Shown in pieces: positions 2,248 to 55,170 of a stretch of DNA of 64,000 bases. The stretch is from contig OY253669.1 of NCBI GenBank assembly GCA_958009085.1, positions 1,240,001 to 1,304,000 on the forward strand. The letters are read 5' to 3'. Numbering within the stretch: the stretch's first letter is position 1; each line of letters opens with the position of its first letter. Origin of the DNA: Protoeuglena noctilucae. Taxonomy: Eukaryota. The translations under genes were made by a program, and so were the position numbers. The notes under the pieces are model-generated. The model did no database searches, was not told the origin of the DNA, and was given only the letters and a program-made list of their open reading frames with translations.

Positions 2248-3650
2248 ATGACGCGCGTCGGCTTCCCAGACGACGGGAGTCCCATTCCGGGGGGCATCTC
2301 CGAGCGGCTGGTGCGCGGCCGGCCGAGGGACTGCACTGCCACCGCCGCTTGGCGGAAAACTGCACGCCGCTGCTTGCGCCGGGCGATGGCGCGGCTTTGC
2401 GACGCTGCTGAGCCATGCCCCCGCCGCGCACGCAGTGGAACGACTCGCTGGACGTGGCTTACCAGTCCCTTCACCACCCGTTCGTCGTGGGCCTGTGCCA
2501 GGGCACGCTGCCCCGTGATGCCTTCCAGCACTACGTCGGCCAGGTGCCTGGACAGCGCAGCGAGCCAGATGAGCGAGGATTACCTGCGGTGCTGCTGCGA
2601 ACCGTGTCGCAAGTCCCCCGGCCTTCAGGATTTCTTCTACCTGGGCGCGTACCTCGAGAGCTACGCCACAGCCCTGGAGAGGGTCGATGCCGAGGCGGAC
2701 CCGGAGACGCACGCCGTGATCTCGAGGCTGCACCGGGCCTGCCAGGACGAGACGGGGCTGCACAGCGCCTACTGCGCCAAGTGGGGCGTCGACCCGACCG
2801 TTGCTGAGCCCTCTGAACCCTGCCTGGCCTACGTCAATTTCCTGCTGGGTGTCGTCCGCTCGGGGGCGCCCGTGCACGAAATCCTCGTTGCCATGCTCCC
2901 GTGCACGCGGCTCTACGCATGGTTAGGGCGCCTGATGCTCCTGGCCGACGGCCAGCGGAACCAGTACGGCGCGTGGGTCATGAACTACGGCACCGAGGAC
3001 TTCCAGGTGCGGCGCTTGCGTTTCTCAGATGGTTTGCACACAGCACAAATGGACACCGTCGCCATGCGTGGCCGGTCCGGTTCCTGTCGCAGGCGCTGGC
3101 CGCCACGAAGGAGGCGATGATCGACCGGATCTGTCCCCAGGACAGTGCCACGTACCAGAAGCTCCTGGGTTACTACAGGTGCTGCCGCCAGGCTACGTGT
3201 CTGGGCTGTTATGGCAGGAGTCAGCGGCCTGACGTGCGCTGCCCATCCACCGCCGCCCCCAGGGAGGCCATGCGGCAGGAGGTGAACTTCTGGGGAGCGC
3301 ACCCGGGCCTGCACCTGCAGCGCATGAACCTCGGGGCGGTCGAGGTCGACCCGAGCTACGGCCTGAGCGCAGAGCAGCTGCAGCAGGTCGCAAACGCGGC
3401 GGCGGCGTGCAAGGGCAACGCAACCGACGGCAAAGCGCCCATGAGCATCCGGCTGTCCCCGGGCTGGCGACTGACCATCTCGGGGCCCACGGCAGCGGTC
3501 CCCAGCTCCACGGCCCGCCCCCTGTTCCACGTGGTGCGTGTTTTCCGAATCAACGAGCTGACTTGCGACGCATTTGCCATCGCGGAACTGGACCGTGCAT
3601 TCATCTCCTCCGCAGCCGAGGGACGGCGCGACGGGCCGCCTGCTGGATGA
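2248..3650 (+). CDS. TenA/thiaminase II family protein (Cys-type) with a C-terminal extension; 5 exons
   Basis: Spliced product contains 'SLHHPFVVGLCQGTLPRDAFQHYVGQDFFYL', 'AMLPCTRLYAWLG', 'YGAWVMNYG' and 'AMRQEVNFW'. GT-AG introns near 2311, 2544, 3008 and 3179; TGA stop. Confidence 0.85.
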
Positions 3651-3889
3651 CGCGCCTGGCGAGTACACGGCGACCGGCTGGCACGAGACTCTCGCGTTCC
3701 TGACTTCGTAACCAGGCCACGCGCCCGTGTTCATCGACGAACTGAGATGTTAAGAAACGGTAGTAGGAGCTCTAGCAGGAGAATACTCACGAGGAGTTGG
3801 CCTTTTCTTGAGAGAAAGTAGTTGCGAGGCTGGCTGAAGCTGGGAAGGCCGCGGGCAGGTCCTCTGTGGCACGTAAGATTCTTCACAAC

Positions 3890-5412
3890 ATGGAAAACGG
3901 GCATGCGTCTCGGGACAGGGCGGACAGGGCCGCGTCGGGGGCGGGCGCGGAGTCCAGCGAGCGGATCCTGCCGCCCTTACCTCTCGCCAACTTCCGCACG
4001 CGATTCGTCGTCCCCGATGATGTCAAGGACGAATGGCTTCCCTACTTCAGGCAGCTGACACTGTCGAGCCTCGGCGGCAGCCTCCATCGCGAACTCAGCG
4101 TCAGCTTTGCCGCGACCTTTCACCCGCGCACAGGACCGACATGTACGGCAATTTCGGCCTGCGCCGGTGGCCTTGGTACGAGTACATCCGCCTGCCCGTG
4201 TTCGCGATCACCGTGCTGCCGCTCCGGGTCACGGTGCTGGCCATCGTGAGCGTGAGCCTGCGGGTGGCCGCGGCCATCCAGACGATGCTGGGGACGAGGG
4301 CTGCCAGGGTCTACGCGCACATCAACGGGATGTTCAGCTGCATGACGGGCGTGGTGTGCGGCTTCGGCGTCCTCCCGCGCGTCATCGTCGTGGATGCGCC
4401 CCCAGCGGGCTGCCCGGACCGATTCACAGAGAACGGCGTGCTCATGCGCCCCCCGCTCGTCATCAGCAACCACTCGAGCTACGTGGATGTGGCCATGATG
4501 TCCGGGCTGCTGTACCCCTCGTTCGTGGCGCGCGCGGGAACCGAGAAGCTGCCTTTCTACGGCCCCGTGTCCAAGACCATCCGCTGCATCCTGGTGAGGC
4601 TTGCGACTGACCGTGGCTTCCAGCCTTGCACTGCCAGGGAGCGTCGTCACCCGCGGGTCGGCCGCCGGCGCAGGTGGAGAGGGAGCGCCCCAAGAGCTCA
4701 GCGGGCCAGGAGGAGCAGAGGCCCTCGAACGGCAACGACTTACCCCTTGCGGCGCAGCAGGTGAGGGCACCATTGCTGTGGTTGTCCCGTCACCGCACCT
4801 GTCCCTGCCGTAGCCGCCCGTGTTGCCAGCGCTGCCCCGTCCACCCTGCAGGTGGTCGACCGCTTGCGAGAGCTCCGGGAGCGGGCGCGCACGGGCCGGC
4901 CCTTCCGTTCCCTGATGATCTTCCCAGAGGGCACGACCACCAACGGCCACTTTCTCATGCAATTTAGGATCGGCGCTTTCCGTGCCGGCGTGCCTGTGCA
5001 GCCCTACCTCCACGTCTACCGCTCCACGACCGCCAGCGTCTCCTGGGAGTCCATGTCGTTCCCGATGCAGTTCTTCCTCGTCCTCTGCTCCCCCTTCACC
5101 CTCTCCCGCACGTACGCGCTCCCGCCCTACTATCCCAGCGCCCAGGTACCCTAGGGGCGCTTGCTGCCGTCCGCGGCCCTGGGCAGAACACCGCACCGAC
5201 GCGTGTCCTACGTATGTTCCCCGCAGGAGGAGAAGGACCCGCTGCTGTACTCCAGGAACGTCCACTCGTACATGGTGGAGTGGTCAAAGAGGCTCCCTTG
5301 GCTAGCTGAGCGCGGGGGGCTGATCCCCACCGATGCGACGCTCGCCGACAAGCGCGACTTCCATCGGTGGCTGCTGTCGGGACGCCTCCAGGACGCGAAG
5401 AAGGCCGAGTGA
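3890..5412 (+). CDS. Lysophospholipid acyltransferase (LPEAT/LPCAT-like); 5 exons
   Basis: Acyltransferase motifs NHSSYVD (HX4D) and FPEGTTTNG; N-terminal 'PYFRTDMYG' as in plant LPEAT1. The first intron (4051..4133) is GC-AG. TGA stop. Confidence 0.9.
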
Positions 5413-5614: not shown

Positions 5615-8600
5615 ATGCTGCAGGTCGCCCCGCGCATCGCTGGTGCGCTATCGCGTTCCGCGTGCTCGGAACGACGTATCAGCGCGCCGACGCCCTGCAT
5701 CACGCGCCCCTGCCCAGGGCTGCAGCTGATCAACCGCCAAGGACCCGTCGCCAGGAGCCTGTCGGGGTTTGCTGGGAGCGTAGGCGGCGCGCAGTACGAG
5801 AGAATCGCGTTTGCAGCGGCCCCCGAGCTCAAAGTCCGCGCAGAGGCCGCGATCAGCCAGGGTGTCACGCTGCACAATGGAGGGGCGACCGTGCGGGTAA
5901 GCGCCCCCCTCGCGCCTTTCCGACATCAATGCCGGCTTTCTTTCGTACCGATACGAAGCTTGGTGGTCTCCGCGCGCCCGTGGGATGCGCAAATGCGGCG
6001 AACGCGCCCCACCCCAGGTGTGGGCGCCCTGCGCGAATGGCGTGCGACTGCAGCTGAGGGACAGTGCCAAGGAGATCGAGCTCGACAGAGAGGGAGACGA
6101 GTGGGTCGCGACCCTCGCCGCGGGGGTTCTTAAGGTGAGCGCGGCGGGAGGTGCGACGTGGACGTTAGCTCTCGAGGACTGCTCGATCCTCCGCGCCGCT
6201 GCTGCCGACCCGGGCTCCGCTGCGTCCTATCTGCAGCACGGCACGTGCTACCGCTTCGTGGTCAGCACCAGGGATGGCCGCGAGGTCCAGCGCCGCGACC
6301 CGTACGCCCGCTGGACGGATTACGACTCGTACTGGTGCTTTGTGGACGACCCCGCCGCGTACCGGTGGCGCACGCCGGCGGGAGACCAGCGCCCGTTCGA
6401 CGAGTACATGATTTACGAGATGCACGTCGGCAGCTTCACCCCGGAGGGCACCTTTGCCGCCGCCAAGGAGCGGCTCAAGCACGTCGTGGACCTCAACTTC
6501 ACTGCTGTCCAAGTCATGCCGCTGACGGAGCACTCGGACCGCTGGGGGTACAACCCCCGGCAGCTGCTCGCCGTGCATGGCCCCTACGGCACCCCCGACG
6601 ACTTCCGCGCCTTTGTCGACCACGCCCACGCACTCGGGTGCGCCTGCTGGCGAGGCCCACGCATGACTCGCGCCCGCTCATGCGACCTGCGTTGTCCACC
6701 TCTGTATTCGTCGTCTAGTGAGGCCCACGCATGGCTCGTGCCCGCTGACCCGCCCCGCGCTGTCTGCTTCTATACTTCTGCAAAGTCTCACGTCCCTCTG
6801 TCCCGTCGCGTTCCTCAGGCTGTCGGTGATTGTGGACGTGGTCCTCCACCACGGGGCCGTGGAGCGCAACGAGCTGTGGGACTGGGACGGCTGGGAGGAG
6901 ATGGGCAACGGCGGCATTTACCATGAGCGTGCCCCCGACACGCAGTGGGGCCGGGCCTTCGCTTTCTGGAAAGCCGAGGTGCGGCGCATGGTCCACGACG
7001 CCTGCACGTCGTGGCTCGGGGACTTCCGCTGCGACGGCCTCCGATTCGACTCAGCCAACGACCTCCCGCCCGACGTCATCCAGCCCCTCACGTGGTCCCT
7101 GAGGTGAGAGCTCTGGACAGCACGAGAGCTGAGAGCGCTAGGTAGCACGGAGAGATTGAGATATTACATATTGCTGGGCTGGCAAGGGGTCTCTGCCCAC
7201 CTTGCGCCTGCCACGGGCGCCCTCGACCATCTCAACACACACGCTAGCGACACCTGTTCGCATTCGCGTCAGTTGCCAGTCTCAGCACGCCAGTGACACT
7301 CGATGGCACCCGTTGCCATCGCCGCGTCCTCGTCGCTGCTCTCAGGGAGCGTTTCCCCGGCCGCATCCTCACGGCGGAGGTGACCCCTGAGAACCCCCTG
7401 TCGGTGCACGAGGGTGGGTTCGACTCCGTGTGGCTGCACTCGGGGTACTTCGACATCATCCAGCAGCACCGGGCGCTCGGGCGCGGCCACCACGGCGGCG
7501 GGGACTGGGCGGCGGGGTGGGACCTCCCTCGGCTCCGCACGGTCATGGGCCTGCACTCGGGGTTCACCTCCCCGACGCAGTGCATCAAGTACCTGCTGGG
7601 AAGCCACGACCAGTGCGGTTGCACCCACGGGGGACACTACGAGGACTACAAGGTGAGCGAGAAGCCACGGAGGGGCGATGGCTGCGAGGTCGGATGGCGA
7701 GGCACACGCGAGCAGCTTTGATGGGATGGGTTGCTGCCGATGGCCGCCCGTTGCGTCCGACCGGTCATGGGCCCATTTGGCATGACATGGCCGCATTCGC
7801 TGCCGACCCGGCCATGGCCGCAGATGATTGGGGGCCGTCACCGGTACGCCACAGACCAGGTGGGTGGGCGCGAAGCTGGTTGCACGTGTGAATGCAGTAA
7901 TTGCGTGTTGACAGCTTTCGGGTTTGGTTTGCTGGGCGCTCTGGACACGATGCCGGAATCACTGGCTGCAGTACGGAGGCGGGCGGGAGGACAAGGGAGC
8001 TGCGGCGGCGGCGCGGCTGTGGTGGACGTCCAACGTCGGCGCGGCTGGGCTGACGATGATGTTCATGGGGACGGAGTGGAACCAGACGGCGTGGTGGGAC
8101 GTGGACGAGCACCACCGCCTCCAGTGGCAGCTGGGACGTGAGTGACTAGGGAGGGCTGGGGTAGCAGGGGGCCAGTCGGTGGTAGCTCAGCGTCTCATGG
8201 CATCGATGGTGACCTGCCTATGTGACATTGACGGATGGTGACTCATGCAACACGCCTTGCGCCTGCACAGAGGACCAGCTGGGCCGGGAGATGATGGCCT
8301 TGGTCCGCGATTCCAACGCGCTCCGGTGGCGCTACCCCGCGCTGAGGCGGGGCTGGGCGAACATCCTGCACGAGGATCGCCCCAACGGGGTCCTGGCGTT
8401 CGAGAGAGTGTCCGAGGGCGACCTGCGCATCGTGGTGGTGGTGAACGCGGGGCGCGGCAACTGGCAGGGTGACGAGTACGGGGTGTGGGTGGGGGGGGGG
8501 TCCCTGAAGGAATGCTTCTCCAGCCAGGACGTGGCATACGGTGGCTGGGAGGGCTGGAAGTCGAACAAGGGCCGCGTGGTGAATGTGCACGAGGGCAAGG

Positions 8601-8716
8601 CGTGGATCAGCATCCCCGAGCAGTGCACGCTCGTGTTCGTGGACTATCCGTGGGAGGTCGACGCTGGGGCTGGGGCTGGGGCGGGGGCCGGGGCTGCGGC
8701 CGGGGCTAGGGCGTGA
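5615..8716 (+). CDS. GH13 alpha-glucan enzyme with a CBM48-like N-terminus (TreZ/branching-enzyme-like), probable plastid transit peptide; about 8 exons
   Basis: Motifs 'VRVWAP', 'RRDPYAR', 'IYEMHVGSFTPEGTF', 'WGYNP', 'DVVLHH', 'DGLRFDS' (nucleophile), 'TAEV' (acid/base) and 'GSHDQ'. Ser/Arg/Ala-rich N-terminus. TGA stop. Confidence 0.88.
8662..8708 (+). repeat. (GGGGC[TGC])n hexamer repeat encoding the Ala-Gly tail of the GH13 protein
   Basis: gctggggctggggctggggcgggggccggggct; translates as AGAGAGAGAGA. Confidence 0.8.
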
Positions 8717-8973: not shown

Positions 8974-10866
8974 TCAACCGCCTTCGAATAAGGTGTGCAT
9001 GCCGTGGTTGAACTTGGAGAAAGTGGCGGACACCAAAAGACCTGCGGCAGTGGGTGCGGTGACAAGACGGTTGTGTGCAACAAGTGGGCCGTGGCCTGCA
9101 TGGATAGAGGGGCCCCATCCCTGCCGCCCTCTTGCCTGAGTCAGCCAGATCTCGGACCCAGGCTGGCGCCTCGTCTCAGGTGCCCATCAGTTTGATCTCA
9201 AGGATCGCGTATTCTGAGCAAATACTGTCCCCAGGCACCGGCTTTTCCTGCACGGCAGGCACGGCGCATCACTCTGGTCACCGTCGCTGCCATGAGCAAG
9301 TGGGCGAGCGCGTGCAGGGCTGCGTGCATCTGCAGTGCTCGTCACACCTGAGGGTCGCGGTGCCACCGCCCCTGCTCCAGGCAGCTGGGCTGGCCACGAG
9401 GGCTCTCCAGGAACATGCACACGTGGGTGTCCATGGAGATGCGCACAGCCGCGTCGTAAGGAATCTGCACGCACCGAGGGCAGCGGGGTCGCACAACGCC
9501 ATCCCAGCGCGGGCGGCGCCGCAGGCCGCGAGCAAGGCAAGCAGCCCTTGCCTGAAACGCAGCGCGCATGTACTGGGTGCGCACGACGGGCGCCAGGCGC
9601 TGGCCGATGACGGCCCTCTGCACGTCCGCGAAGAGTTGCGCGAAGGGCGCAACCTCCCCGGGGCTCTTGCCCTTATTCGTCAGCGCCCGGGAAGCCTCCT
9701 CGACCGTCAGGGCGCCCGTCAGGAAGGGCACCACGCTTTGCTCCGGCAAGGCAAACCTGTCCTTCCTCCCCGAAGCCTCCTCCCCCGGCTGCTGTGCCTC
9801 GGACTTGCGCTCCACGTACACCACGGACGGCTCCCGCGGGCCGTACCACCGCAGCCGAATGGCGTCTGCCTTGGGGTGCATGTTCTTCTGGCGCCCGTGG
9901 TGCAGGTCCCTCTCCGCGTTGTCCAGGTAGGCCGAGTTGATGAGCTGAGAGTCCCCGGTGTAGTCCGACGGGTTGTAGCGGAAGAGCGGCAGGTGGCGGA
10001 GGATGGACAGCTTGACGGCCGACACGTCCTCCTGCCGCACCCAGAACTGCGAGAGGGCGAGGGACGCGCCGGGAGCCGTTGCCCGACACGTACGCGCATT
10101 GTCTGGGACCAGAGAACACATGACGGTGCACGTGACTGACCTTGGTGGTGGCGCGCACAAACTCTTGCGCGTCGTCCTCGTTCTTCTTGCCCGCCCCGTC
10201 CGTGCCTCGCAGGAGCGCGTACACCTCCGAGAGGTCCACGAATACCTCCGTCGCAGCGCCCTCCAGGGGCGTCGATTCGCGTTCCAATACCAGTATCTCA
10301 TGCGCAATGGCGTCCGCCTGTCCTCGTGCCGAGGCGGCCCAGGCAGGGTCGGCAAGCGCCCCGGAGACGGCCGCGTCCGCAACCCAGTGTCGCAGCTCGG
10401 AGCCACTGCGGAGCCAATGGGACGGGAGGTTGGCGAGGGGCCAGCTCGATTAGGTCGGGGGAAGGAGCGGGAGCGGGCCAACGTGCTTTACGCACCAATG
10501 CTGGAGGCGACCAACGCTTCGGTGCGCTGCCATCTCTCCCCCCGTGCACATGTGAGACGTCTCAAGCCGATTCACTGCGAGAGGCGGCCGGATAGGCTGG
10601 TTCGCGCGAGGGCACACGCATGCGAAAGGATGCGCGCTCCCTCGTCGCGACTCACCGTCCGCAGGGTCTTTACTGTCGAAGAACAGCAGAGACACGGAGT
10701 TTGCGTCACAAGACCCGCCGCCCAAGCCTTCCAACAGCTGCCTGCGGGCGCTACCGGGCATTACCAGACGAGCTCGCGTCGTGGCGACCTGCCGCAGCGA
10801 CGCGACGTCGAGCGCGACGAAGAATCGACGAGCGAGACGATCTATCCTAAACGCACGTCGTGGCAT
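8974..10866 (-). pseudogene. VTC4: Degenerate VTC4-like polyphosphate polymerase: reduced SPX remnant, internal TGA, no recognisable transmembrane tail
   Basis: VTC motifs 'QEFVRATTKFWV', 'DSQLINSAYLDN', 'AIRLRWYG', 'VYVERK', 'VRTQYMRAAFQIPYDAAVRISMDT' and 'AILEIKL..*DEAPAWVRDLADSG..FSKFNHG'. In-frame TGA at 9178..9176. The 5' exon structure is uncertain. Confidence 0.7.
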
Positions 10867-11861
10867 CGTCGCGAGCCCAAGTAACGACGCGCGCGGTTCG
10901 CTGGAACGCTGCCGCATGCGCAAGGTCGCCGCCCATTTCTCCCATCACCTGGGCCCCCACGGCCGGCCGTCCCCACGTGAGCCCCACAGGACCACCATGC
11001 ATCCCACTCCCATCGCGGCAATCGCGAGGCGCCGCAGCCACGAGCGGGCGCGGCCTTTGGTGGAAGCATCGGGCCATGGGACTCCTGGGCTGCTGTCCAT
11101 GATAGCAATCCCTCTAACGCAACCCTAGGGCAGTGCGGGTGAAATGTCCAAGCGTTGGTGGGCGCAAGGAGCTGTGCCATCCCTCTTAGATGCATTCTTA
11201 CACAAGTCGACGGGTAGATGCGCATATCCAGCCGGGGAAGACGCGCCAGTCGTCACGCCGAAGTCGCAGCAGTCGGTTTGCTTGGCGCGAGCAGATCGGC
11301 GTCCCGTCAGCCGCGGGATATCGGAGAGTCAACGTTTGGCTGGCCGGCGCAGCTCGCTTCGCCTAAACTCGCCTCTCTCGCCCCTCGCTGCTCAATGGTG
11401 AGATGACCGATGCGTCGGGTGCCGTTGCCGTCTCTCCACTCTCAACGCACGCGTCCCTGTCTGCGCGCGGGATGCAGCGCCCCCTCGCGCTCGAGCGCTG
11501 CGGCTGCAAAGCGGCATTGGCATCGTCGGTCAGAAAAAATGCGTTTAAGCTTCTTGCAGCCGAGAGGTGGCTGCGCTCGGGGCCTGAGCCGCCCGTAGGG
11601 GCTGGGATCCGCGAACGGCACCATGCCTGCGGGTGAGGGGCCCCGAACGAGCTCCAGGAGCCCAGCGCCAGACGGGGAGAGCACTGCTGGAAGTCTCCAC
11701 GATGCACACGCGTCCTCGGTGGATCGGAGGGCGTCGCGTCGTGCGCTCCCGCACGTTCAGTCGCAAGGGGCGCTCCAGGTGCGCGCTCCACGCTTTCGTC
11801 GCCGCTGGCAGGACGCGTTGCAGTTACAGTGTGACGCTACCGCCAGGCAGTCCCGCCGCAG

Positions 11862-14800
11862 ATGGAGCATCGTCGTAGCGAAGTGTTGACGCTGGAGGGC
11901 GAGGCATCTGTCGGGCCGTCCTACCGGCACGCCCCTCCGGTGCATTCCCCGAGGCTGCGGGGCCACTCGCAGGCGCACACTAGCGAAGCGCATGCAGCGG
12001 CCGACCACGGGGCGCGGGCGAAGGCCGCGAGCCCCTACCTGGCCTCCCCCGCGCATCCGCCCCCTGTGCGCTCGTCGCCCTCTCCGCACAAGTCTTCCTC
12101 GCGGATCCTTCGCTTGGAGACGACACCGTCGCCGGAACAAGCGCCCGTCGGGCCGGTCCTCTCCGCTTCGCAAAGCGCGGAGGCCCTGCACCGCCACGAG
12201 GAGGAACGCCGGTCCCCTCCGCCCTCCACGTCGCCGCCTTCCTCCCCCTCTCCCCACCTCGCGTTGGAGAAGGATGAGAAGGACTTGAGGGATCCCGGCG
12301 GCCGCGCGGAGGGGAACGGGGACGGCGCAGCGGGGCCACGGCGCACCATGTCGAGCCATGCCCGCCTCGACGGGGCGGCCTCCGCGCGGCCGAACGCCCG
12401 CGTGGTCGTCTCAGTCGCTTCCAAAGCAGACTCTGCAGCGAAGGAGCTCGGCAGCGAGGCATACAGCGGGGACGTGCGGCCAATTGCAGACATGACGCCG
12501 GAGGAGCTGGAGAGGGAACGGCTGCGACTCAAGGGAGCTTCGGGAGCGGACACGGCCCCTCTGCCACGGTGCGCCGCTTGAGGTCCACCGTCATCTCGGC
12601 TTGCAGGGCGTCTCTTGGCCCGTCGCTTGGCCCGTCGCGCCCGTGCCAACACCTCACCCTCGCTCTCCCCACGCAGGTGGAACAAGGCGCTGGGCCCCAG
12701 CTTCCGCATCTCCCGCGGGGGGACTCTGATGACTCTGCTGGCGAAGAACAAGGAGGAGGTGGAGCCCATGCTGCCCGTCGTAGAGGCCTTTGAGGCGGAC
12801 GCCTTGGATGAGCTGGGCGTGGGGAGCGGCCACAGCACGGCCGGGAGGGAGCACGAGGGCTACGGCGACGACGAGCGGAAAGCGGGGCCCGCAGACAATG
12901 AGGGCGAGGCAGTGAAGGTGAAGGGGAGCTACCCCGTCTTCGCGCTCCCGGACGCGGCCGCGGTGGCAGGGAGCGGGCCAGGGACGGCAGGGGTGCTGCC
13001 CCTGACGAGGTTCGGGTCGACGCCCCGGGGCCCGGCGATGCCCGCCAAGGCCTCGCGGCTGGCGGCGGTGACGCGCGCGGGGGCGGCTCCCGGTCCCCGC
13101 AACCACGTGTGGCCGGCGCCCGACTCCGACGACGCCCGGGGGTCCCTCCTGGCCGAGGGCGTGCCGTCGTCCAGCGTGGCGCGGGGCGCCGGCAGCGCGG
13201 TGACGGCCCCGGCGGAGCCGGCGACCAAGGTGCGCGACATGGTCAAGACGTCCGTGTGGAACGCGGACGCGGACTTCGTGGAGATGGTGCGGCAGCGGTC
13301 GTGGAAGGCGCGGGCGCAGGGCATCGCCAAGCGCATCGTGTCCAACCAGGACTTCGAATTCACCGTCATCGTCCTCATCTTCGCCAACTGCATCACGCTC
13401 TCCATGTACCGGCCCCTGGAGGGCGACAGCGCCCCTTTCAACAGGCGAGCGGCTGCGTGACGCACAATCCCGCGTCACTATTTGCAGATTTGGCGTCTCC
13501 CGCGGTCGCATGCCTCAGTGCCAAGCATGCCCCGCCCGCCCTCTGGGTCCCCCGCAGCCGCCTGGCGATGGCCGAGCTCGTCTTCAACGTGGCCTTCTCG
13601 GTCGAGGTCGTCTTGCGCTTCATCGCCGACGGCGGCATCCGCAACTACTTCCGCGAGGCCTGGAACGTGTTCGACTTCCTCATGGTGATGGCGGGGTACT
13701 CCTCCCTCCTCCCCGTGGGCAACAGCAACACGGGCGCGATCCGCGCGCTACGTGCGCTCCGCGCCCTGCGCCCCCTGCGCACCATCACGCGGTTCCAGAG
13801 CCTCCGCGTCATCGTGGTCGCCTTCCTCGAGTCGGTGCCCATGATCGGGCAGGTAACGATGCTCATGTTCTTCGTCATGGTCCTCTTCGGCATCTCGGCC
13901 CTCTCGCTCTTCTCCGGGGCCTTCCACTACGAGTGCTACGACCCCGTGACGGGCCAGCCCGAGACCTACCCCAACCCCATCCTTCCCGACGAGTTCGGCT
14001 GCGGGGGGTGGCGCACGTGCCCCCCGGCGTTCCCCGTGTGCCGCCACAGCAGCGCCAACCTGGCCATCAACGCCGCCGGCTTCGACAACCTCGCCACGTC
14101 CCTCCTCACCGTCTTCCAGATCATGACGCTCGGCGACGCATGCATCGTGATGTACAGGGTCATCGACAACACCTCCTGGGCATCCGCCCTCTGGTTCGTC
14201 GCCCTTATCCTCTTCATGACCCACCTCTCGCTCAACCTCTTCCTCGCCGTGCTCAAGCTCGAGTTCGGCCGGGCCCAGCGCGCCTTTGCCGAGGAACTCA
14301 AGGCGACGCGCAAGTCCACCAAGAAGACGACCTTCGCCAAGGCCATCAATTTCGTCCGCGCGGGGATGCACAACTTCGTGGACCGGCAGCGCGCCAAGGT
14401 GCGTGGCGCGGACTGGCACGTGCTGCGCGGCGCGACGTCGGGAGACCTGCTGCGTGTCGCGTGGCGCTGCCACCGTCGCCCGACCGCGTGGCCTGCGGAC
14501 GCAGTGACATATCTGCGTTTTTGCTCTTGCTCTGCAGAGCCTGGACCTCCTGGTGGACGCCAGCGAGGGGTCCGTGGCCTCGGCCATATCAGGGCTGCCT
14601 CCGAAGAAGCTGACGGAGGAGCAGCGCGTGGCCATCCGGCAAGCGGCGCTGGAGGAGCTCGTGAACGCGGAGCGGCGCGTGGTCGTGCGGGCCTGGCTGC
14701 GGCTGCGGCTGCGTCTCATGCGGCTTTCGGACAGCACGGCCTTCAACAACTTCTTCCTGTTCGTCATCCTCGTCAGCACCGTCTTCATGGCATCCGAGTA

Positions 14801-17800
14801 CTACGGCATGTCCGCGACCTACACGGCCGTGCTCAACGGTGAGTGGCATGCATAGCGGGGCCGAGGCGGCAGTGCGTTCGACACCTGTGCATTTAACTAC
14901 CCGCGCTCCGCTGGCGCCTCTCTGAGAGAAGCGCTCGGCCATGTCCGCCTGCTCTCTTACGCGATCCACCGCGCCCCCGCTCTCTGCCCGCAGTGGCCAA
15001 CTACGTGACCACCGCGCTCTTCTGTTTCGAGCTGGTCATCAAGATGGTCGGGTACACGTTCTGGGGCTACATGAGCGACGGCTTCAACGTCTTCGATCTC
15101 GGTATGGTCCTCCTGTCTCTCTTGGACATCTTCTTCCTGTCGGGAGGAGGACTGCAGGCGCTGAGGGCGCTGCGATCGCTGCGGGTGATTCGGTCCCTCC
15201 GCGTCCTCCGCATCTTCAAAATGTTCAAGTACCTGCAGTCCCTCAAAAAGATCGGCGACGTGATCATGCAGGCGCGTTCTCCCCACGCTGCCGCGGGGCT
15301 GGCGGCAATGGGGTACCACCTTCGCACCACCAAGACACGTGCACAGCTGTCGCGGCGGGACGCTTCAAGTGACGCGTTCCGTGTCCGCAGAGCTCCGGGT
15401 TCTTCTTCTCGGTCGCGGTGCTGATGATCCTGTTCATGCTGGTCTACACCATCATCGGGCTCCACACGCTTGGCGCCGTGATGCTGGACGACAGCTGGGC
15501 CACCAACAACTTCTCCTCCTTCGTCACAGCCCTGCGATCGACCTTCCAGGCGAGGATCTCAACCGGCTGAGCTCCCTTCCTTCGCCTTGCTGCTAGCCTA
15601 GCCATGCTTGCCCGTTGTGTGCCGTGAAGGGTCCCATGTTGGCGCGTTGGCGCGTGCAGCTACGGGCCCGCGCCCTAACCTCCCTCCTTGGCTCTCCTCC
15701 GCAGCTTTCCACGCTCTAGAACTGGCAGGTGCAGATGTTTGCGTACGTGCGGGCGTCCGGGTGGGGCACCTCGGCCTTCTTCATCACCTGGGTCATCCTC
15801 AGCAACATCATCCTGCAGCAGCTCTTCCTCGCCGTGATCATGGAGGCCTTCGAATCCAAATACGACACCGAGGTGAGACGAAGAGCTACGCGCGGAGAGA
15901 TTGAGCGGGAAACGCGGCACACGCATCGGTGGCATGACCGTGGCTGTCGCCACTTTCACAACACGCGCAGGTGACGAAGGAGATCAAGTTCCTGTTCAAG
16001 CGCACGGCCAAGGGGCGCAAGCAGGGGCCCAAGAACAAGACGCTGAGCGACCAGGACCGGCTGGGGTCCAAGGTGGGGGCGTCGGCGCTGATGGGCCCTC
16101 GAGAGGAGAGCGTGACGTCTTTCCGCCCAGGCGCGGACGGGCCCAGGGGAGGCGGCGCGACGAGGTTCGGGCCGTCCGCGACGGAGAGCGCCCGCATGGG
16201 CGACGCGGGGCTCCCGCTAGGCGCCCAGTTGGCACGCGACACGGCCTCTGGGACCGTGCCGGTGTTTGCCCTGCACAAGGACGACTCGGTGGGCGGTGGG
16301 CAGCCGGGCGCTGCTCTGACCGAGAAGGTCCCGGCGCGGGTCACGCGGTTTGCCCTCGCGGATGGGGCTGGGCCTGCCGTGGCCGTCCGCACCGTCCCGG
16401 CACCTGTCCTGGAGCGCCCGAGCGTGGCGTTCGCAGACGCACCGGCCGAGGACGGCACCGAGCCGGGACCGCTCTGGGCGACACCCGCGCGGCCCAAGAG
16501 CGCCGCGGCGACGCCCCAGCGGATGCATGTGGCGGATGGTGCTGCCCCGGCATCCCCAGCGATGTTTGTCGGGGATGAGCCGGCGACGGTCGGGCGCGAG
16601 GCCGCGTCCCGGCAACGGCCGCAGGAGTTCCGGGGCTGGGTCGCCGATGCCGAGCCCGACGGTGCGGGTCGTGGCGCGCATAGCCCGTTGCCAGGGCCGA
16701 CGGCCCCTGGCCCAGTGGCTGAGTCTCTGGGGTCGGCTCACCTGTCGGGGCGCGTCGCGCGGGCGATACCCGGCTCTCGGGTGGAGTTCTCGGGACGGAG
16801 GACGTCGTCCTCATCTAAGGAGTTGAGGAGCGTGCGCGGGTCCGAGGAGGCCGTGGCACAAGCGAGGGTGGCTGGCGGCCGCCTCGCCCGCACGACGTCG
16901 AGTTCCTTAGCGGAGCGGATCGGGCGCGGCCTTTTTCCGCCGAGCGCGGGCCCATGGGGGCGGGTGGCACCCACGCTCTTCATCCCGGAGTGCACGCCCT
17001 TGGACGTGCCGTCCACGCCCTCCCCGACCGGCAGCCGGCGGCTGCGGGGCTCCGTCGACGCGGCATCGATGCCCGGCACGCCCCACCGCGGATCCTCGGT
17101 GTCAGGGCGCTCCCTGTCCCGCCGCGCGTCAGACCGAGGCCTGCGGCCCCAGCGGTCGCTCTACGAGAGCCCTGTGGGGCGCCCGGTGAGTCGGTTCCGG
17201 ACGAGCGAATCCCTGCACGAGGCGTCGCCGGGAGCGACCGCGCGGCTGCCGTCCTGGCGGGAGGACCGCGCTGGGTCAGCTGTCGGGGAAGCGGCATTTG
17301 GGGCCGAGGGCAAGGGGCTGGCGCACGCGGACGGTGGCGCGAGGGACGTGCGGCCGGCCCCAACCGCGCGGGTCGATGCGGAGGGTCTGGCGGCGTCGGG
17401 ATGGGACCTGAGCGAGCTGGCGGGCGTGCGACGCAACACGGTGGTCCCCGCTGGCCCCGTCATGGAGGACTGGTTCCAGCGTCCCGGCAAGGAGTCGAGC
17501 GCGGTGGGTAGGGATGACTCCGGCGGCTTGGAAACGGGCAAGCGGGTGAAGGCGGACCGGGCGGCGCGGGAGTCGGGGTACAGCGACACGGCTCCCAGCG
17601 TGAGCGAGGTCTCCCGGACGTCCGGGTCGCGGTTCTCGTTCGCGGGGGACTTCGGCGAACTCACGGAGATACAGGATGAGGTGAGCGCGGGGTCGCAGCG
17701 CCGCAGCGTGGCCAGCATGACGCTGCCGTTGCCAGCGTGCGCGTTGACTAGCGCTGTTGATTGACTATGCCCCGTCCTCGTGCGCAGTTGGCGGATCTCG

Positions 17801-20800
17801 GGAGGGACGAGTGGGGCTCGCTGCACAGCGGGAGCACGCAGACGACGGTGACGCAGGGATCGATCCCTCAGACGGCGGTGCGGCGCAAGAAGGGCGGCAA
17901 GCGCACGCCGCCGCACCTCAAATTCCAGGGCAAGGCTTTCGGATTCCTGGACACCTAGAGCCCCTTTCGCCGCACCTGCTACCGCATCGCCACCAACAAA
18001 CGCTTCGAGGTTTTCATGCTCGTTGTCATCGCAAGTGCGAGCCGCGCCTGTGCCATACGCCGCCATCTGCAGCGCCGCGTGCCATGATTGCCATCCGATG
18101 CTGTGACCCTCTGCTGGACGCTCTGTCGCTCCCCGCGCGCAGTCAACTGCGGGATGATGATGTACGACCGCCCCACGATCGTCAAGGGATCAACGTCCTA
18201 CGCGGTGCTGTACTGGAGCGACGTGTGCTTCACCGTCCTGTTCGGCATCGAGATGCTCATCAAAATGACAGCCTTCACGGCCAAGGAGTACATCCGGCAC
18301 ACGCCCAGCGCGGTGGACACGGGCATCGTGGCCACCAGCGTCCTCACCCTCGCTCTGGAGAGCTACCTCCACCAGATCAGCGTCATCAAGGGGCTGCGGG
18401 TGCTGCGGGCGGTCAAGCCGCTCCGGGCAATCACGCGCAGCGCGGGGATGCAGCTCGTCCTGCGCTCCATCCTCCTGGTGAGCCGCGCAGCGGTACCTGT
18501 AATGCCGCGGCCCACCGTTGGCGCCCCGGTGCCGCGCCGGCTGTGCATGGGTCCTGCTTACGACAACTGCCCCTTGGTTGAACCTCCCGCAGTCTATGGT
18601 GGCCATGGCCAACGTGTCAGTGATCCTGCTGTTGTTCTTCATCATCTTTGGCATCCTGGGCGTCCAACTCTTCGGCGGAAAGTTCTACTCTTGCAACGAC
18701 CCGACCGTCGACGGCAGGACGCAGTGCGTGGGCACGTTTGTCGACCCTAGCTCAGGTGCGGGATGCTGGGCGCGGCGTGCAGTCGTCGAGAACACTGGTG
18801 CGCTGCAGTTGCCCCGGGGTGCGTTGGCCGGGGTCACTAGGACCCTAGCCTCGTCCTGATGCTGCTCTATGTCCCATGGTGCATGCCCCGTCCTGCCCCG
18901 TCCCTTTCCTTTGCCATTTACACACACCTGGTGCTCTCACACCTCACACGTCACGCTCGCGCGCCTCGCAGGGGCCGTGACCCAGCGCGTTTGGAGCAAC
19001 AGCTTCTTCAACTTCGACAATCTCGGTCACGCGCTCGTCATCCTCTTCGTTTTTGCCAACCAGGACAGCTTCACCGACCTCCTGAGCCTGGCCATGTCGA
19101 CGCGCCAGCCCGACCAGCAGCCGGTGCCCGGGGCGAACAACTGGGCCGTGCTCTACTTCATCGCCTTCATCTACATCGTCGGGTTCTGCATGATGAACAT
19201 GTATGTTGGGTGAGGGACGCGCGGGGCGGGGCACACAACTTGGCAAGTCGTGCCCCTCGCTCACAGCCGCCGGCGGGGCGCGAGGGCGTCTCGACCCCTG
19301 TCCCACCCGGTCTGGGCGCCGCAGCGGGGTGTTCTTCCATTTCACTGTGTGAAATTCCCCTTTCTCGCCTCTTCTCTCCCACAGAGTGGTGTTCTTCCAG
19401 TTCACACGCATCAAGATGCTCAGCCAGACGGGCACGGCCTTTTTCACCAAGGAGCAGTCCCAGTGGGTGGAGCTAAACAAGGTCCTGGCACGGTTGAAAC
19501 CCGAGGTGAGGCCTTGGGTGGTGGGTGTGAGCCCCGGGCATGCGACATGAGTGGGGTGGTGCTGGCACAACTGAGAAAGGAGGTGAGCATCAGGCTTGTG
19601 GCATGGAAGGGGTTTGCCGGCATGGTGTGGCTGTGTCGGGACCTCCGCGTTCCGACGCCGGCGTGCGTCCCTCGGCCTGCAGGGCAAGCCGCAGGGCCAG
19701 TCGCGGTTCAGTCGCATGTGCGCGCGCATCATCATGTCGCCCAAGTTCGAGGCCTTCATCATGGGCGTGATCGTCGCCAACGTGTTTGTCATGGCCCTCA
19801 CCTGGTACAGCGAGCCGCCCGCCATCGTGATGCTCCAGACCATCTCCAACTACGTCTTCACCGCCATCTTCCTCGTCGAGGTCGTCCTGAGGGTGAGCCA
19901 GGCTAGCTTTTGCATCAGCGCAGGGGGGGCCCACGGCTGGTGGCAGCCCGGCGCCATGCCAGGACAGTCTGGCCGTCTGCGCAGGGAGCGGTGCCAGGCT
20001 AGCTTGTGTGTCAGCACAGGGTGCCATGCCAGGCAATGGCGGGTGCCACCACCGGATGCCACTATATCGCGTAACCCCTTGCGCCACTGTTCCCTCTGCA
20101 GGCCTCTGCGTGGACGTGGCGCGTCTACTGGGTCTCCAGCTGGCACCGCTTCGACTTCTTCATCTCGGTCGTGTCGCTGGTGGACGTCGTGGTGTCCCTG
20201 GCCGCCTCCGCCGTCAACATCGGCTTCATCCGCATCCTGCGCGTGCTGCGCCTGGCGCGCATGCTGCGATTGATCAAGCGCGTCCGGGGCCTCAACGACC
20301 TCTTCACGACTCTCTACATCTCCCTGCCTGCCCTCTGGAACGTCGGCGCCCTCATCTTCCTCCTCTTCTTTGTCTACGCCTACATCGGGGTCCAGATCTT
20401 CGGTCACCTGGCGCAGTCGACCGGGGGGGCCATCAACTACCACGCGTCGTTCGCCGACTTCGGCAAGGCCATCCTGACGCTCTTCCGCGCCTCCTGCAAG
20501 GACGACTGGTCGCCCGTGATGCAGGGCATGATGGAGAAGCCCCCGGCGTGCTCGTACGCCGCCGGCACGTGCGGGACCCTCTTCACGCTCCCGTACATGC
20601 TCTCCTTCATGATCCTCGTCGGCATCGTCATGATCAACCTCTTCCCGACCGTCATCATCGAGAACTTCGAGACGACGATGCAGCAGGAGGAGTGGACGCT
20701 GCAGCCCGCCACCCTCGACACCTTCGTGGTCCTATGGGCCAGGTACGACGACGGGTCGGGGACCATCCTGCCGCGGCAGTTCGAGGAGCTCCTCGTGGAG

Positions 20801-21765
20801 ATCGGGCCTCCGCTCGGGCTGAAGAAGAACGCCTCGCCCAAGGAGATCGTGCAGGTGAGAGACTGTTGACGGATGGCGAGGGACGGCAAGGGTAAAGTGG
20901 AGTCGGCAAATAAGGGGCTGTTCATGACAAGAGGTGGCTAGGGCGCAGCACAAGCATGGAGCTTATGCAGGCAATGCCAGTAGGGAGGCTCGCTGCGTGC
21001 TGCGCGTGTGCGTGTGGTCCCTCGCATCGCTCTCTGACGCGCGCCCTGCCCATGGATGCGCCCCCGCAGTTCGTGACGGAAATCGACATTCCGCTGACCA
21101 CGGACGGCCGCGTGAGCTTCGGCGCTGCGTTGTACGAATTGGTCCGTCGCGTGTGCGAGGTGGATCTCCCAGAGGGCGAGGTGCTGCGGCAGGTGGAGCG
21201 GCTGTACAAGCGGCTCCTCAAGGGCGTGGACATGTCCAAGGAGGACCACAACAACTTCTCGGCCTTTGTCATTGTCAAGCGGGTGCAGAAGCGGTGGCGC
21301 CACCTGTGCCGCGCACACAACCTCGTCGATCGGCACGCCGTCAGGTCCCTGCGCGCCGGTGTGCCCTCCGCGCAGCTCGTCGTGGTGAGGCCCGCGCGGG
21401 TGCTAGGGTTACAGCTAGGGGATAGCGACACGTCCCTGAGCCACGCTGGGCCAGCGCGTCACGCCAGTTTTCCAGTGCATCGTGGTTGCAATCGTGACGC
21501 AACCCCCGTGCCCGCACCCCCGCAGGCTCCGCCGCGGACTCTCAAGCAAGAGTTCGCCAAGGCGTCCACGAAGGTGCCGGGGCTCGCGTTCAAACTCGAC
21601 CGCGCCAGCCTGAAGGCCTTTTTGTCGTCCGAGCTGGGCCGCGAGCTCATGGCCAGGGACGGCGGCGCTATTGCGGGGCTCGCGCTCCCGTGGACGCGGA
21701 CCGGGTCGCAGCGCCACTCCATGCGGCGCGGCCGGACCCAGGAGGAAGAGGATCAGAAGCGATGA
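11862..21765 (+). CDS. Four-domain voltage-gated cation channel alpha subunit (Cav-like); about 18 exons, two in-frame TAG codons
   Basis: Four 6-TM repeats, each with an S4 segment (RALRALRALRPLR; RALRSLRVIRSLRVLR; KGLRVLRAVKPLR; RILRVLRLARMLR) and a pore loop. C-terminal EF-hand-like 'WARYDDGSGTI' and IQ-like 'VKRVQKRWR'. TGA stop at 21763-21765. Confidence 0.93.
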
Positions 21766-22044: not shown

Positions 22045-22065
22045 CCCCCCCCCCCCCCCCCCCCT
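22045..22065 (+). repeat. Poly-C homopolymer between convergent genes
   Basis: A run of about 20 C is directly visible. Confidence 0.9.
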
Positions 22066-22273
22066 TTCGTAGGCTCCAGTCGCATGCCCAAACGAGTGCC
22101 ATGAGCGGTGCGCTCTTCGCCGCGTACATCGCGTATACTGAATGGCTAGTTTGCCTCACAACTTGCTTGAAAGTCTACGAGCTCAGAGAGAATCGAGCAG
22201 GGCTACATCAGCCCCCAGGGGGCAGCTGGGCGACGCCTTGATCCTTGCGACCCCGTCGCCGGCCTGCGTGTTT

Positions 22274-22659
22274 CTACTTCGTGATTAGGTAATACAGGTT
22301 ATAGGCGATGCTCACAGACCCGAGCCCCGCGATGTAGAGCCAGTAGACGCGGTTGACGGTGTCGTCGCTGTCCGTGGCGTTGTAGACCCACGCGTGCCTC
22401 CGGTTCTGCGGCGCGCAGCGGCTGGGATCCTTGGAAAAAATACGGGAGAAAGCGCGCCAAGACGCCGCGCGCGCCCGGGGCCGGGAAACGGGACCGGTCG
22501 CACGGTCGCACGGTCGCAAGGCGTCACCTTCGCCTCGGCCAGGTGCCGCTGCTCCGTGATGATCTTCGGCGAGGAGAGAGTCCCAGTCTGGGTTCCCGTC
22601 GACGCCTGGGTGGCCATGCCCCGGCGCGCTGCCTGGGCGAGCTGCCGAAGCGACCGCAT
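22274..22659 (-). CDS. Small mitochondrial single-TM protein, cytochrome c oxidase subunit VIIa-like; 2 exons
   Basis: Presequence-like 'MRSLRQLAQAARRGMAT', then 'KIITEQRHLAEAK|NRRHAW...YWLYIAGLGSVSIAYNLYYLITK'. Size and layout resemble plant COX7a-like proteins. TAG stop. Confidence 0.5.
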
Positions 22660-40400: not shown

Positions 40401-43400
40401 CTACTGGGCGCCGGTGAAGGAGAGGCGGCCCCGGCTGTCGACCAGAGCCAACCGGTGCTTGCCCTGATAGGGCGCGCCAACCACAGAGACCTGCCGGACC
40501 TCCCGCATCGGCAGAGCCACGCACCCGGCCGTCGGGATGACCACCTTGGTCGCCACCTGCATGTCCTCGTCGCCCGCGGGGCGCTCTGCGTGGAACGGGG
40601 CACACGCGTGCATGACCATCACAGTGCCATGCAGAGCCTCCATGCAGAGCCAGGCTACAAGCACGCCACAATCTCAGCACCAAGACACAAACAAAGACAC
40701 AAACATCCTGTTTACATTTGACTACCTCTTCCATTCTCTCTTTCTCTCTCTTACCGGCTGCCTCGACCTCCTTGGCAGGGACCGTGAGATCTTTGGCGTC
40801 AATCAGCCGCAGCACGCTGCGGTGGCCCGAGGTGAAGCACGCCAGGAGCGGGGCCTCCGCCCCGGGGACGTTGAGCACGCCGGACCCGACCGTGACCGTC
40901 TGGAGGATGCGGCCAGAGTCCAGGGACCACGAGGCCACCTGCAGGGAAAGGGCGATGTGAACGGTGGGTGGTGACGGCGAGGGTGGTGTACACGCAGATG
41001 TGCGACTTATGACCGTGGATGTGTATCATAGATATTCCACAGAGACATGGAACGTGCTGCATTGGTGCAGCCATGTGTCGCGACGACTGCGATTGAGATT
41101 GCGTGGTCAGCTACCCCGTCCATGTGGCTACCAAAAACCACTCGCCTTGCCCTCCCTGTCGTCGAAGGAGATGCAGACGCCGAGGCTCTCCATGACCGCG
41201 AGCCCCGCGACCTCCGAGGAGTGCAGCGACACGGTGAACTGACGCTCGCCGTTGGGGCCCCAGCTGCTGATGGCGCCCTGGTAGGTGTAGGACAGCAGGC
41301 GACCCGTCGACTGCGGGAGAGAGAAGGTGGCAGCGGAAGGGTTTGAGGCTTTGGGTGCTGATGCACGTACCGCTACCTTCAAGGCCCGCGGCCCATTCGT
41401 CGTAGCCAGTGTCTCACCAGCGCGATGCAGTTTTTGACGCGTGAGCGATGCGCCTCGACCACTCTCCCCCCGCCTGCGACACAAGCACGGCATGTCTTTT
41501 GCACTTTGTGACACACACGCATGGAGCGTAGTCATAGTTATCCACGCCCCCTTGCGCCTGACCTGACTGGGCGACGGGGCGGAAGTAGATCTGGCCCGTC
41601 TTGTCCCAGGTAACGACGTTCTCGCCCGCGCAGATGAGCCCCAGAGGCTCGCCGCTGTGGAGAGCATCCATGGACCGTGGGTCCCAAAGGTTCGTACCTG
41701 CATGGCAATGCCCAGACCGTACACAGGGTGAGTAGCAACGAGTGAAGGCGTGCACAGAATGTGTGCTTCGCAGTTGCTTCTCCGTCTTTGCTATCCCTCG
41801 CAGGCATGAGACACTCTCTTGTAGGGCAAGTTGAAAAGCCAATGTGCCGTTGTCGCGTCACGCACCCTGGTCGAGGTCCCACAGGATGACGCTCTTGTCC
41901 CGGCTGATCGTGGCGCACTTGGCGCCGTCGCCGACCGCCACCGCCGCCAGCACCACGCCCTGGTGGCCAACCAATGCCTTGCTCTCTCTCCCGGCGTCCC
42001 ATTCGTGTACCGTGAGGCTCCCGGCCGTGTCCCAGACGAGCACGCCCCTCTTGCCTGCGATCGGAAATTGGATAAGTCAATGTAAGGAATGGCCAAGGCC
42101 ATGCAGTGCGGCCAGGCTGACACTACTCCTAAGAGGGCTCAGGTGGCATGTTGCAGAGTGCCGGGCCACCCACCCAACCCAGATGCACCAACCACACCCT
42201 CCCTATCCCCCCCAGCCCCTCGCCTGGCAGGATGAGGCAGCCGGCCACGGACCACTTGCACTCGCGGATGACAGGCTCCTTCTCCAGGTCTTCCAGCAGA
42301 GCTGCCTGCTTGCCGCCCCACGCCACGACAGCGGTGCCCTCGGCGGAGACTTGCAGGCCCGTCACAGCGGACTGCGATCGATGGATGGAAGCGAGACAGT
42401 TGAATGTGTGTAACAAGCATTGACAACCCCATTTAGAAGCTCCCAAGAACGCCTAACCCAATGCCGGGCAATGCAGACGACTCACCGCCAGCTGCACCGT
42501 CGCTGCGCAGGTGCCCGGGCTGCCGACCATCTGCCATGCGCGGACGGTGCCATCCCACGACGCAGAAACGACCAGGGGCAGCCCATCCGCGGATTTGGCA
42601 ACCGCACACGTCTCGATCGCGGCCCTGCGCAGGTTGTCAGAAAAGAGGTAGTGTCAGTGTTGAAGTCATCAGTCTCAGCCTCAGCGATAACATAACATCG
42701 GCATGCCTCCAGGTACAAGCGCCCGCCACCACCCGCACTCACGTGTGCCCATTCGCGACGCCGATGCGCTTGCGTCGGTCCACGTCCCACAGCTCGATCT
42801 GCGGGGACCCCGCGGGCCCGCCCCACGCCGCCAGCGCGACCTTCCCGTTGGGCAGCGTGACCTCAGTGACCCCCGCCACCTTCCCACCCAGCATGGGCGC
42901 GTCTGGCTCCCCAGTCGCCTCGTCCGCCTCTGCCACCACGCCCACGTCCCACACCACAATGGCCTCCTCACTCCACGAGACCAGGCGGTCCTGCCCCACG
43001 CACTCGGCCCGAAGCACGTCAGAGGCGTGCTCGTCCAGCTCCGTCTCCACCACTGCGAGGGTGTGCGCCACGCGGACGGAGCTGTTTGTGAGAGGCATGA
43101 GCGTGATTGTTGCAGATGTTTTGTTGCAGGGTTGCAATGCTTGTTGCAGCGGCACTCTGACATGCGCTGTGAATGCCTGTCGAGGGCCTGAAACGGGTGG
43201 TGTTGGAGAGCAACACCAACGCAGGCGGGTGTGCTCACCGGGCCCGTTGTCCGGGACGTCAATGATCTTGACGACGTTGTCGAGGGTGCTGATCAGGCGC
43301 GTCGTGGAGCGCTCGGCGTTCCGCGTCACGGACAGGTGCAGGCGATTGGCATGGCCCCTGTGCATCCAAGTGTGGATGACCGCATCACTCACGTCCGCCA

Positions 43401-55083: not shown

Positions 55084-55170
55084 GGTGCGCCCCCGTCCCG
55101 CACATTGCCCTGTGACCTGCCTACATTCCAGCCGCCGTCACCCAGCTCCCCGTTCGCCCTCCCTGCAGCC

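Follow-up and report, generated by a model that had tools for sequence, protein, structure and literature searches.

Two in-frame TAG codons in a transcribed, otherwise intact CAV2-like channel gene of the green alga Protoeuglena noctilucae

Does a TAG codon within a conserved and transcribed reading frame mark a broken gene, or is it read as an amino acid? This question is raised by a four-domain voltage-gated cation channel gene, similar to green-algal CAV2, in a 64,000-nucleotide stretch of Protoeuglena noctilucae DNA (GenBank assembly GCA_958009085.1, contig OY253669.1, positions 1,240,001 to 1,304,000 of the forward strand; hereafter "the window", numbered from its first letter). The gene is interrupted by two TAGs, one at the selectivity-filter glutamate of domain II (TAG1) and one just before domain III (TAG2). 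Both are genuine in the DNA and persist in spliced mRNA, with no intron removing TAG2. Apart from them the gene is intact, and the window's other genes are predicted to be free of in-frame TAGs. We consider it reasonably probable that this is a young nonsense-disabled channel gene, fixed in a near-clonal ocean population while its transcription continues.

The channel gene and its two TAG codons

The window has a G+C content of 63–73%, and third codon positions of the channel gene reach 89% G+C. The open frame begins at 12582, with its first ATG at 12729, and the gene comprises 16 exons and about 2264 codons, a count that includes the two TAGs. The exon model was built from 12 splice joints in public RNA contigs, all of them canonical (10 GT..AG and 2 GC..AG), and from three introns read from the sequence. 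In the resulting spliced frame of 6942 nucleotides (nt) from 12582, the only internal stops before the TGA at 21763 are the TAGs at 15717 and 17956. The reading frame is therefore not uninterrupted, both stops being in the mRNA. The features of the gene, all on the + strand, are as follows.

12729–21765, +: four-domain voltage-gated cation channel gene (green-algal CAV2-like), first ATG to TGA
12729–13444, +: exon 1, starting at the first ATG
13558–14398, +: exon 2
14538–14838, +: exon 3
14994–15271, +: exon 4
15391–15549, +: exon 5
15705–15872, +: exon 6, domain II pore loop and S6, holding TAG1 (X7 and X10 RNA joints 15546>15702 and 15870>15969)
15717–15719, +: TAG1, first in-frame TAG (codon 770), at the domain II selectivity-filter glutamate, in exon 6
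15971–17680, +: exon 7
17681–17787, +: intron upstream of exon 8, GTGAGC..GCGCAG
17788–18034, +: exon 8, end of the II–III linker, pre-S1 and start of domain III S1, holding TAG2 (bounds from joints 17678>17786 and 18034>18143 in RNA contigs of X7 and X10)
17956–17958, +: TAG2, second in-frame TAG (codon 1448 from the first Met), in exon 8, 57 codons from the exon start
18014–21762, +: spliced open reading frame (ORF) P0271 of 797 aa, from the first Met after TAG2 to the end, domains III–IV and C-terminus
18035–18142, +: intron downstream of exon 8, GTGCGA..GCGCAG
18143–18477, +: exon 9
18593–18755, +: exon 10
18972–19209, +: exon 11
19385–19505, +: exon 12
19683–19892, +: exon 13
20102–20854, +: exon 14
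21070–21384, +: exon 15
21526–21765, +: exon 16
21763–21765, +: TGA terminator of the channel gene; P0271 ends at the same residue

The identity of the gene is clear from several directions. Pfam Ion_trans (PF00520) matched five of the eight exon translations scanned, and the matching stretches (13559–14398, 14996–15271, 15705–15872, 18145–18477 and 20102–20854) cover all four repeats, with E-values of 6.4e-44 for domain I, 3.4e-18 and 1.4e-06 for domain II, 1.1e-16 for domain III and 5.3e-36 for domain IV. The four repeats were also covered, in order, by tblastn with the two best-matching relatives described below (P0003 and P0004). As read from the translations, each repeat has S4 basic residues at every third position: AIRALRALRALRPLR in domain I, LRALRSLRVIRSLRVLR in II, LRVLRAVKPLR in III and IRILRVLRLARMLRLIKR in IV. 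In the selectivity filter, domain I has G/A/S and domains III and IV both have D, as in the relatives; domain II has E in the relatives and TAG here. Exons 8–16 are further confirmed from a separate data source, since P0271, an ORF on a spliced 4728-nt JGI/IMG contig whose called start is the first Met after TAG2, matches our model exactly over residues 1468–2264. Three introns of the gene have GC donors on the + strand (13445–13557, GCGAGC; 15272–15390, GCGCGT; 15550–15704, GCGAGG), two of them confirmed by RNA joints, which is an unusually high GC–AG share for one gene.

Both TAGs were found in DNA and in RNA. Over 11500–19436, a DNA contig from a culture run (X5; 37,526 nt, depth 137) had 0 other letters and 0 gaps, and this run is probably independent of the window's own source, marine-metagenome samples being a possible source. 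TAG1 is present, with 0 other letters, in spliced RNA contigs of two runs, X7 (1048 nt) and X10 (640 nt). TAG2, in the context GGA TTC CTG GAC ACC TAG AGC CCC TTT CGC, is present in one X10 metatranscriptome contig of 1530 nt, made up of 493+249+334+161+240+53 nt over five joints; because this contig is fully accounted for, exon 8 (17786–18034 as aligned, with a 2-nt joint ambiguity) is wholly present and unspliced. X10 is the one run that covers TAG2 in RNA, the listed X7 contigs ending at about 17929 and resuming at about 18005. No joint lies inside exon 8, and no other letter is listed at 17956 in the RNA contigs. An earlier note on this DNA, made from the sequence alone, had described TAG2 as an in-frame, mid-exon stop that no intron could plausibly remove; the RNA joints that bound exon 8 bear out the first part, and the spliced X10 contig that holds the whole exon bears out the second. 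The translation of 17788–18024, ...KFQGKAFGFLDT-X-SPFRRTCYRIATNKRFEVFMLV, is the same string as in that note.

The transcript was assembled end to end in ocean metatranscriptomes from two samples, at word depths of 3–32. ORFs broken at the TAGs recur in the protein collection: a 63-aa ORF ending at TAG2 (P0269) was found on 13 contigs and a 79-aa ORF beginning after TAG1 (P0272) on 18. A read-through variant was not found among proteins of 58–188 aa (1 match in 5 candidates, which is weak evidence). The sole difference over the channel gene in three RNA runs is at 13290 (+): one X11 RNA contig has T for C there, so that CGG (Arg) becomes TGG (Trp) in the cytoplasmic N-terminal region.

To place the two codons among relatives, we relied on a HMMER comparison of exon 14 with 1.84 billion representatives, which returned 10,582 matches at E up to 0.001. 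The best full-length matches, green-algal by source name, were P0003 from Myrmecia bisecta (5.5e-97) and P0004 from Pedinophyceae sp. YPF-701 (1.0e-96), the closest relative here; further green-algal matches came from Chlamydomonas (annotated as a voltage-gated Ca2+ channel alpha subunit), Tetradesmus, Tetraselmis, Ulva and Bryopsis. Identity between the model and its relatives is 42–46% over about 650–890 residues, and no close ortholog was found, the best being 43.5% identical. A homolog search with the TAG-containing exon against longer proteins gave 14 candidates, none significant. When metagenome_contigs was scanned, exon 9 gave 366 pattern stretches and exon 14 gave 91, none of which was confirmed.

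In an alignment with 26 green-algal-type relatives, all 25 rows aligned at TAG1 have E and the remaining row has a gap; in a wider set of eight relatives, the TAG1 column is E in six and D in two. The surrounding motif, L-[TN]-[LM]-E-[ND]-[WFY], is the domain II selectivity filter, and Ion_trans aligned straight across TAG1 (residues 2–55 to profile positions 185–239 of 241; 28.1 bits, cut-off 25). The acidic selectivity-filter residue of the domain II pore loop is thus replaced by a TAG codon in the window gene. The TAG2 column is more variable (D in 14 of the 26, H in 7, T in 2, and K, Y and S in 1 each), within the pre-IIIS1 motif G-[KT]-[SA]-[LF]-x5-[D/H]-[NH]-P-x-R. The alignment agrees with the earlier placement of TAG2 on the conserved pre-S1 motif of domain III. 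In the ortholog alignment once proposed as a means to infer the residue, D is the commonest in the aligned relatives, none of which is a near one.

TAG in the rest of the window

If TAG were read as sense throughout the genome, it should also be found in other genes. We parsed both strands of the window with codon and splice-site scores trained on the channel gene, allowing TAG in exons at a small penalty; recovery of the channel gene by this parser is not independent, the same gene having been used for training. "Shadow" frames on the strand opposite real genes are rich in TAG, and we removed them by comparing the two strands. At a penalty of −3, we found 0 in-frame TAGs in the 7502 codons of 102 non-channel predicted exons, against 2 in the 2330 channel codons as parsed. 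Were TAGs evenly spread, the chance of both falling in the channel would be p about 0.056, so that their concentration in a single gene is of the kind that decay would produce.

Lowering the TAG penalty to 0 let three cases into the parse, one of them ambiguous (46449, −) and the other two weak (25956 and 37068). The ambiguous case, at 46447–46449 (−) in an NLR-like gene ("HRVILA-TAG-CIAG"), is a candidate third in-frame TAG. A weak donor there, TA|GTGCAT (position weight matrix (PWM) score 1.2), splits the codon, whereas a stronger one 11 nt further on, CGG|GTGCGT at 46436 (4.6), keeps it in frame; the parse prefers the codon-splitting splice once a TAG costs 3 nats.

Two other candidates were rejected. 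A TAG in the frame at 4840–5409 lies inside an in-frame 81-nt intron of an acyltransferase gene and so is no in-frame stop, and a TAG at 29673 lies after a usable donor, with flanking pieces of negative coding score. The acyltransferase is LPCAT-like; its intron (5146–5226, +) has an atypical donor, GTACCC, and the TAG it contains mimics a stop. The residues brought together by its removal, PPYYPSAQ|EEKDPLLY, presumably form a motif of the family.

TAG also seems to be in use as a terminator, in a small gene next to the channel.

22274–22276, −: TAG apparently terminating the small two-exon neighbour gene, by the parse and by the G+C at third codon positions (GC3), 0.80 before it and 0.65 after
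22277–22659, −: small two-exon neighbour gene, ending ...LITK-TAG; its predicted product has an N-terminus resembling a presequence and a single hydrophobic helix

RNA depth over this neighbour is the highest in the stretch to which the contigs were aligned (96.5 in X7 and 57.1 in X10, bin 22143–22500), so that a strongly transcribed gene appears, from its predicted end, to use TAG as its stop. No family for it, and no homolog that would confirm its C-terminus, was found by Pfam, by sequence search against solved structures or in a protein atlas. Between it and the channel gene, in intergenic or untranslated sequence, a DNA contig of X5 is one base short at 22045 (depth 160.5 of 281.8).

The two channel TAGs themselves lack the marks of programmed readthrough. 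A purine at +4 favours termination, and an A follows both (CTC TAG AAC and ACC TAG AGC). RNA downstream of the TAGs folds no better than 200 shuffles (z +1.13 for 141 nt and +1.75 for 76 nt). Neither site thus offers a leaky context or a stimulatory downstream structure. No tRNA gene was found in the window. A reassigned code would place TAGs in many unrelated genes and leave TAG unused as a terminator, and within the 64 kb neither is apparent. A wider change of code is not supported, given the 7502 other predicted codons without a TAG and the neighbour gene that appears to end at one. Among the papers listed on nuclear code changes and on transcribed in-frame stops in green algae, none dealt with a planktonic species or with this gene, which is no proof of absence.

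Other genes of the window were assigned by Pfam.

2629–3680: TENA/THI-4 family gene
6089–8704: alpha-amylase with C-terminal domain
9176–10260, −: VTC-domain protein
55169–58885: protein with a FAN-type PH domain

The NLR-like gene is a large multi-exon gene at about 40500–51000 (−). It begins with an MLKL_N-type N-terminal domain (PF22215, E 1.9e-7, above cut-off), followed by NPHP3_N/NACHT (47360–47881) and then by WD-repeat-like exons. NACHT is thus joined, in a green alga, to an executioner domain of the cell-death type.

Recent loss weighed against decoding and other explanations

A young nonsense-disabled gene is the reading that we consider to fit these results best. Disabling lesions are found in genomic DNA (X5) as well as in the transcript (X7 and X10). 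The locus would then be a unitary pseudogene or a fixed null allele of a CAV2-like channel in a marine, high-GC green alga. A GAG-to-TAG change would have removed the sole glutamate of the selectivity filter, in domain II; another nonsense change, earlier or later, would have struck the II–III linker just before domain III; and too little time would have passed since for indels, splice-site losses or promoter decay. We infer a translation stop at both TAGs, as well as the order and recency of the two hits.

This history has a counterpart in transcribed unitary pseudogenes ("pseudo-messenger RNA", PMC1449882), which share with the window gene a spliced mRNA, premature stops and lesions clustered in one gene. 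The window gene differs in having nonsense lesions only, with no indel and with conserved positions kept, and a pseudogene at this locus would therefore be very young.

How unusual are two TAGs and nothing else under neutral decay? The earlier note held that the pattern was more specific than random decay would predict, and this was true in part. The shared identity of the two stops carries little weight, since of the 525 single-base nonsense changes possible in this GC3-rich coding sequence, 364 yield TAG; GAG to TAG is the largest single nonsense class under GC-to-AT-biased weighting. The lack of any frameshift or splice lesion is mildly unusual. Nonsense changes make up 2.6–3.1% of point changes in the channel coding sequence, and green-algal mutation-accumulation studies give an indel-to-point-mutation ratio of 0.1–0.2, so that frameshifts should outnumber nonsense hits about 3–5 fold. 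With the ratio taken from these studies, the probability that two disabling hits are both nonsense is roughly 0.03–0.07. The intuition behind the earlier claim thus has some force, but is outweighed by the low prior for recoding and by the rest of the window.

Several other observations, like this probability, weigh against a disabled gene. The spliced frame has no frameshift, as had been noted before and as the 6942-nt frame bears out, and no further stop; no loss of a splice site was seen at any of the 15 introns, of which 14 were modelled (11 from RNA joints and three from the sequence). Random decay would have to place TAG1 on the very codon of the filter glutamate by coincidence. A transcript that assembles end to end fits poorly with strong nonsense-mediated decay, contig depth being a poor measure. 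At 71 columns invariant in 26 other sequences, the window protein differs at only five, and all five changes are mild (L>I, Y>F, N>H, N>S and T>C). Other lone lineages differ at 1–6 of such columns (one partial sequence at 18). The window protein falls within this range and so bears no mark of prolonged decay; the comparison has little power to reveal a young event.

The strongest rival, though an unlikely one, is that UAG is decoded at both sites and a full-length channel is made, through a suppressor or near-cognate tRNA or through an early, rare reassignment, in which case an acidic residue or Gln would enter the filter position. The state of the gene is in keeping with this (no frameshift, correct splicing, few changes at invariant columns), as are a transcript readily assembled from ocean RNA and two columns that both suit an acidic residue, TAG1 with E in all 25 aligned rows and TAG2 with D in 14 of 26. 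The TAG at 46449–46447 (−) would be a third in-frame case if the better donor were used (PWM 4.6 vs. 1.2). Against it stand the absence of TAG from the other predicted codons and the neighbour's apparent use of it as a stop, the A at +4 at both sites with neither a standout downstream structure nor a tRNA gene in the window and, at 46449, the codon-splitting splice favoured once a TAG costs 3 nats.

There is a precedent in green algae, the nuclear code of Dasycladales, Cladophorales and related ulvophyceans, in which TAG and TAA specify Gln (PMC2984419). Both cases concern a green alga with TAG in a conserved frame. In those algae, many genes commonly contain TAG and TAA and only TGA serves as a stop, whereas in the window the 7502 non-channel codons are free of TAG and TAG appears as a terminator; moreover, the residues aligned to the window TAGs are E and D, not Q. 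We find it doubtful that UAG stands for an amino acid here, be it only at TAG1 and TAG2, with the filter glutamate specified by a stop codon. Such decoding would represent either an incipient, low-frequency UAG reassignment outside Ulvophyceae or a gene-specific limit on channel dosage.

It is improbable, more so than decoding, that shorter products are what matters here, for example a 797-aa domain III–IV half made by re-initiation or from an internal transcript, with the TAGs parting cistron-like units. P0271 is indeed a long open frame directly after TAG2, and X7 RNA depth climbs toward the 3' end, from 3–7 to 18–32. A 3' bias of this kind is nevertheless usual in poly(A)-primed libraries, and where transcripts start cannot be read from contig depth. 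The upstream piece could not form a pore, because TAG1 cuts domain II in mid pore loop, and independent cistrons would have no need of the frame that is kept across both TAGs.

Minor splice forms might also remove the stops, either with the AG of a TAG as a 3' splice site or through an 81-nt GT..AG intron at 17878–17958, which we consider quite improbable. All three options preserve the frame (a loss of 5 codons at TAG1, of 57 at TAG2, or of 81 nt), and the donor at 17878 (GCG|GTGCGG) scores 3.5, at the 97.5th percentile of GT/GC sites. The joints are nonetheless absent from the RNA contigs, though contigs drop rare forms, and the TAG acceptors score −1.9 and −2.6 (52nd and 45th percentiles of AG sites) against 5.6–9.4 for the 15 known ones. 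The deletion at TAG1 would take out the filter motif itself. The 81-nt intron was rejected as a candidate for want of an RNA-contig joint and for its acceptor score of −1.9.

RNA editing back to a sense codon, confined to certain conditions or life stages, is slightly less probable again. Nuclear editing of the kind that restores UAG codons is not known in green algae. Neither TAG has another letter in the X7 and X10 RNA contigs that cover it. The case for editing lies in the otherwise intact state of the gene and in a fungal precedent, the restorative A-to-I editing of in-frame UAG (PMC10776026 and PMC11156358), which likewise affects otherwise intact, transcribed genes. In contrast, the window's RNA contigs show no edited letters, and UAG-to-UGG editing would give Trp where relatives have Glu, so that the ancestral residue would not be restored. 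Finally, a consensus or assembly error, for which nothing was found in favour and which had been named earlier as an outcome that would undo the case, is effectively excluded by identical letters in the depth-137 culture DNA contig and in RNA contigs of separate ocean samples, and by ORFs broken at the TAGs on 13–18 contigs of the protein collection, unless all of these data go back to one source.

Significance of a channel gene with two stops

In Chlamydomonas reinhardtii, CAV2 is reported to control ciliary beat switching (PMC11621555). With the C. reinhardtii protein (P0158) and other green-algal channels, the window gene shares four Ion_trans repeats, arginine-rich S4 segments and the filter pattern, at an identity of 43–44% across some 750–890 residues. 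It differs from green-algal CAV2-like channels in its two in-frame TAGs, one of them at the domain II filter glutamate. If UAG were decoded here, green algae would have gained a further example of nuclear stop-codon recoding, located at the channel's most function-critical residue. If the gene is instead decaying, as we think probable, a flagellar-type calcium channel would have been caught at the moment of its loss in an abundant ocean alga, which would help to date the loss of excitability or motility traits and would serve as a warning to annotators of environmental genomes that a broken gene can pass as intact.

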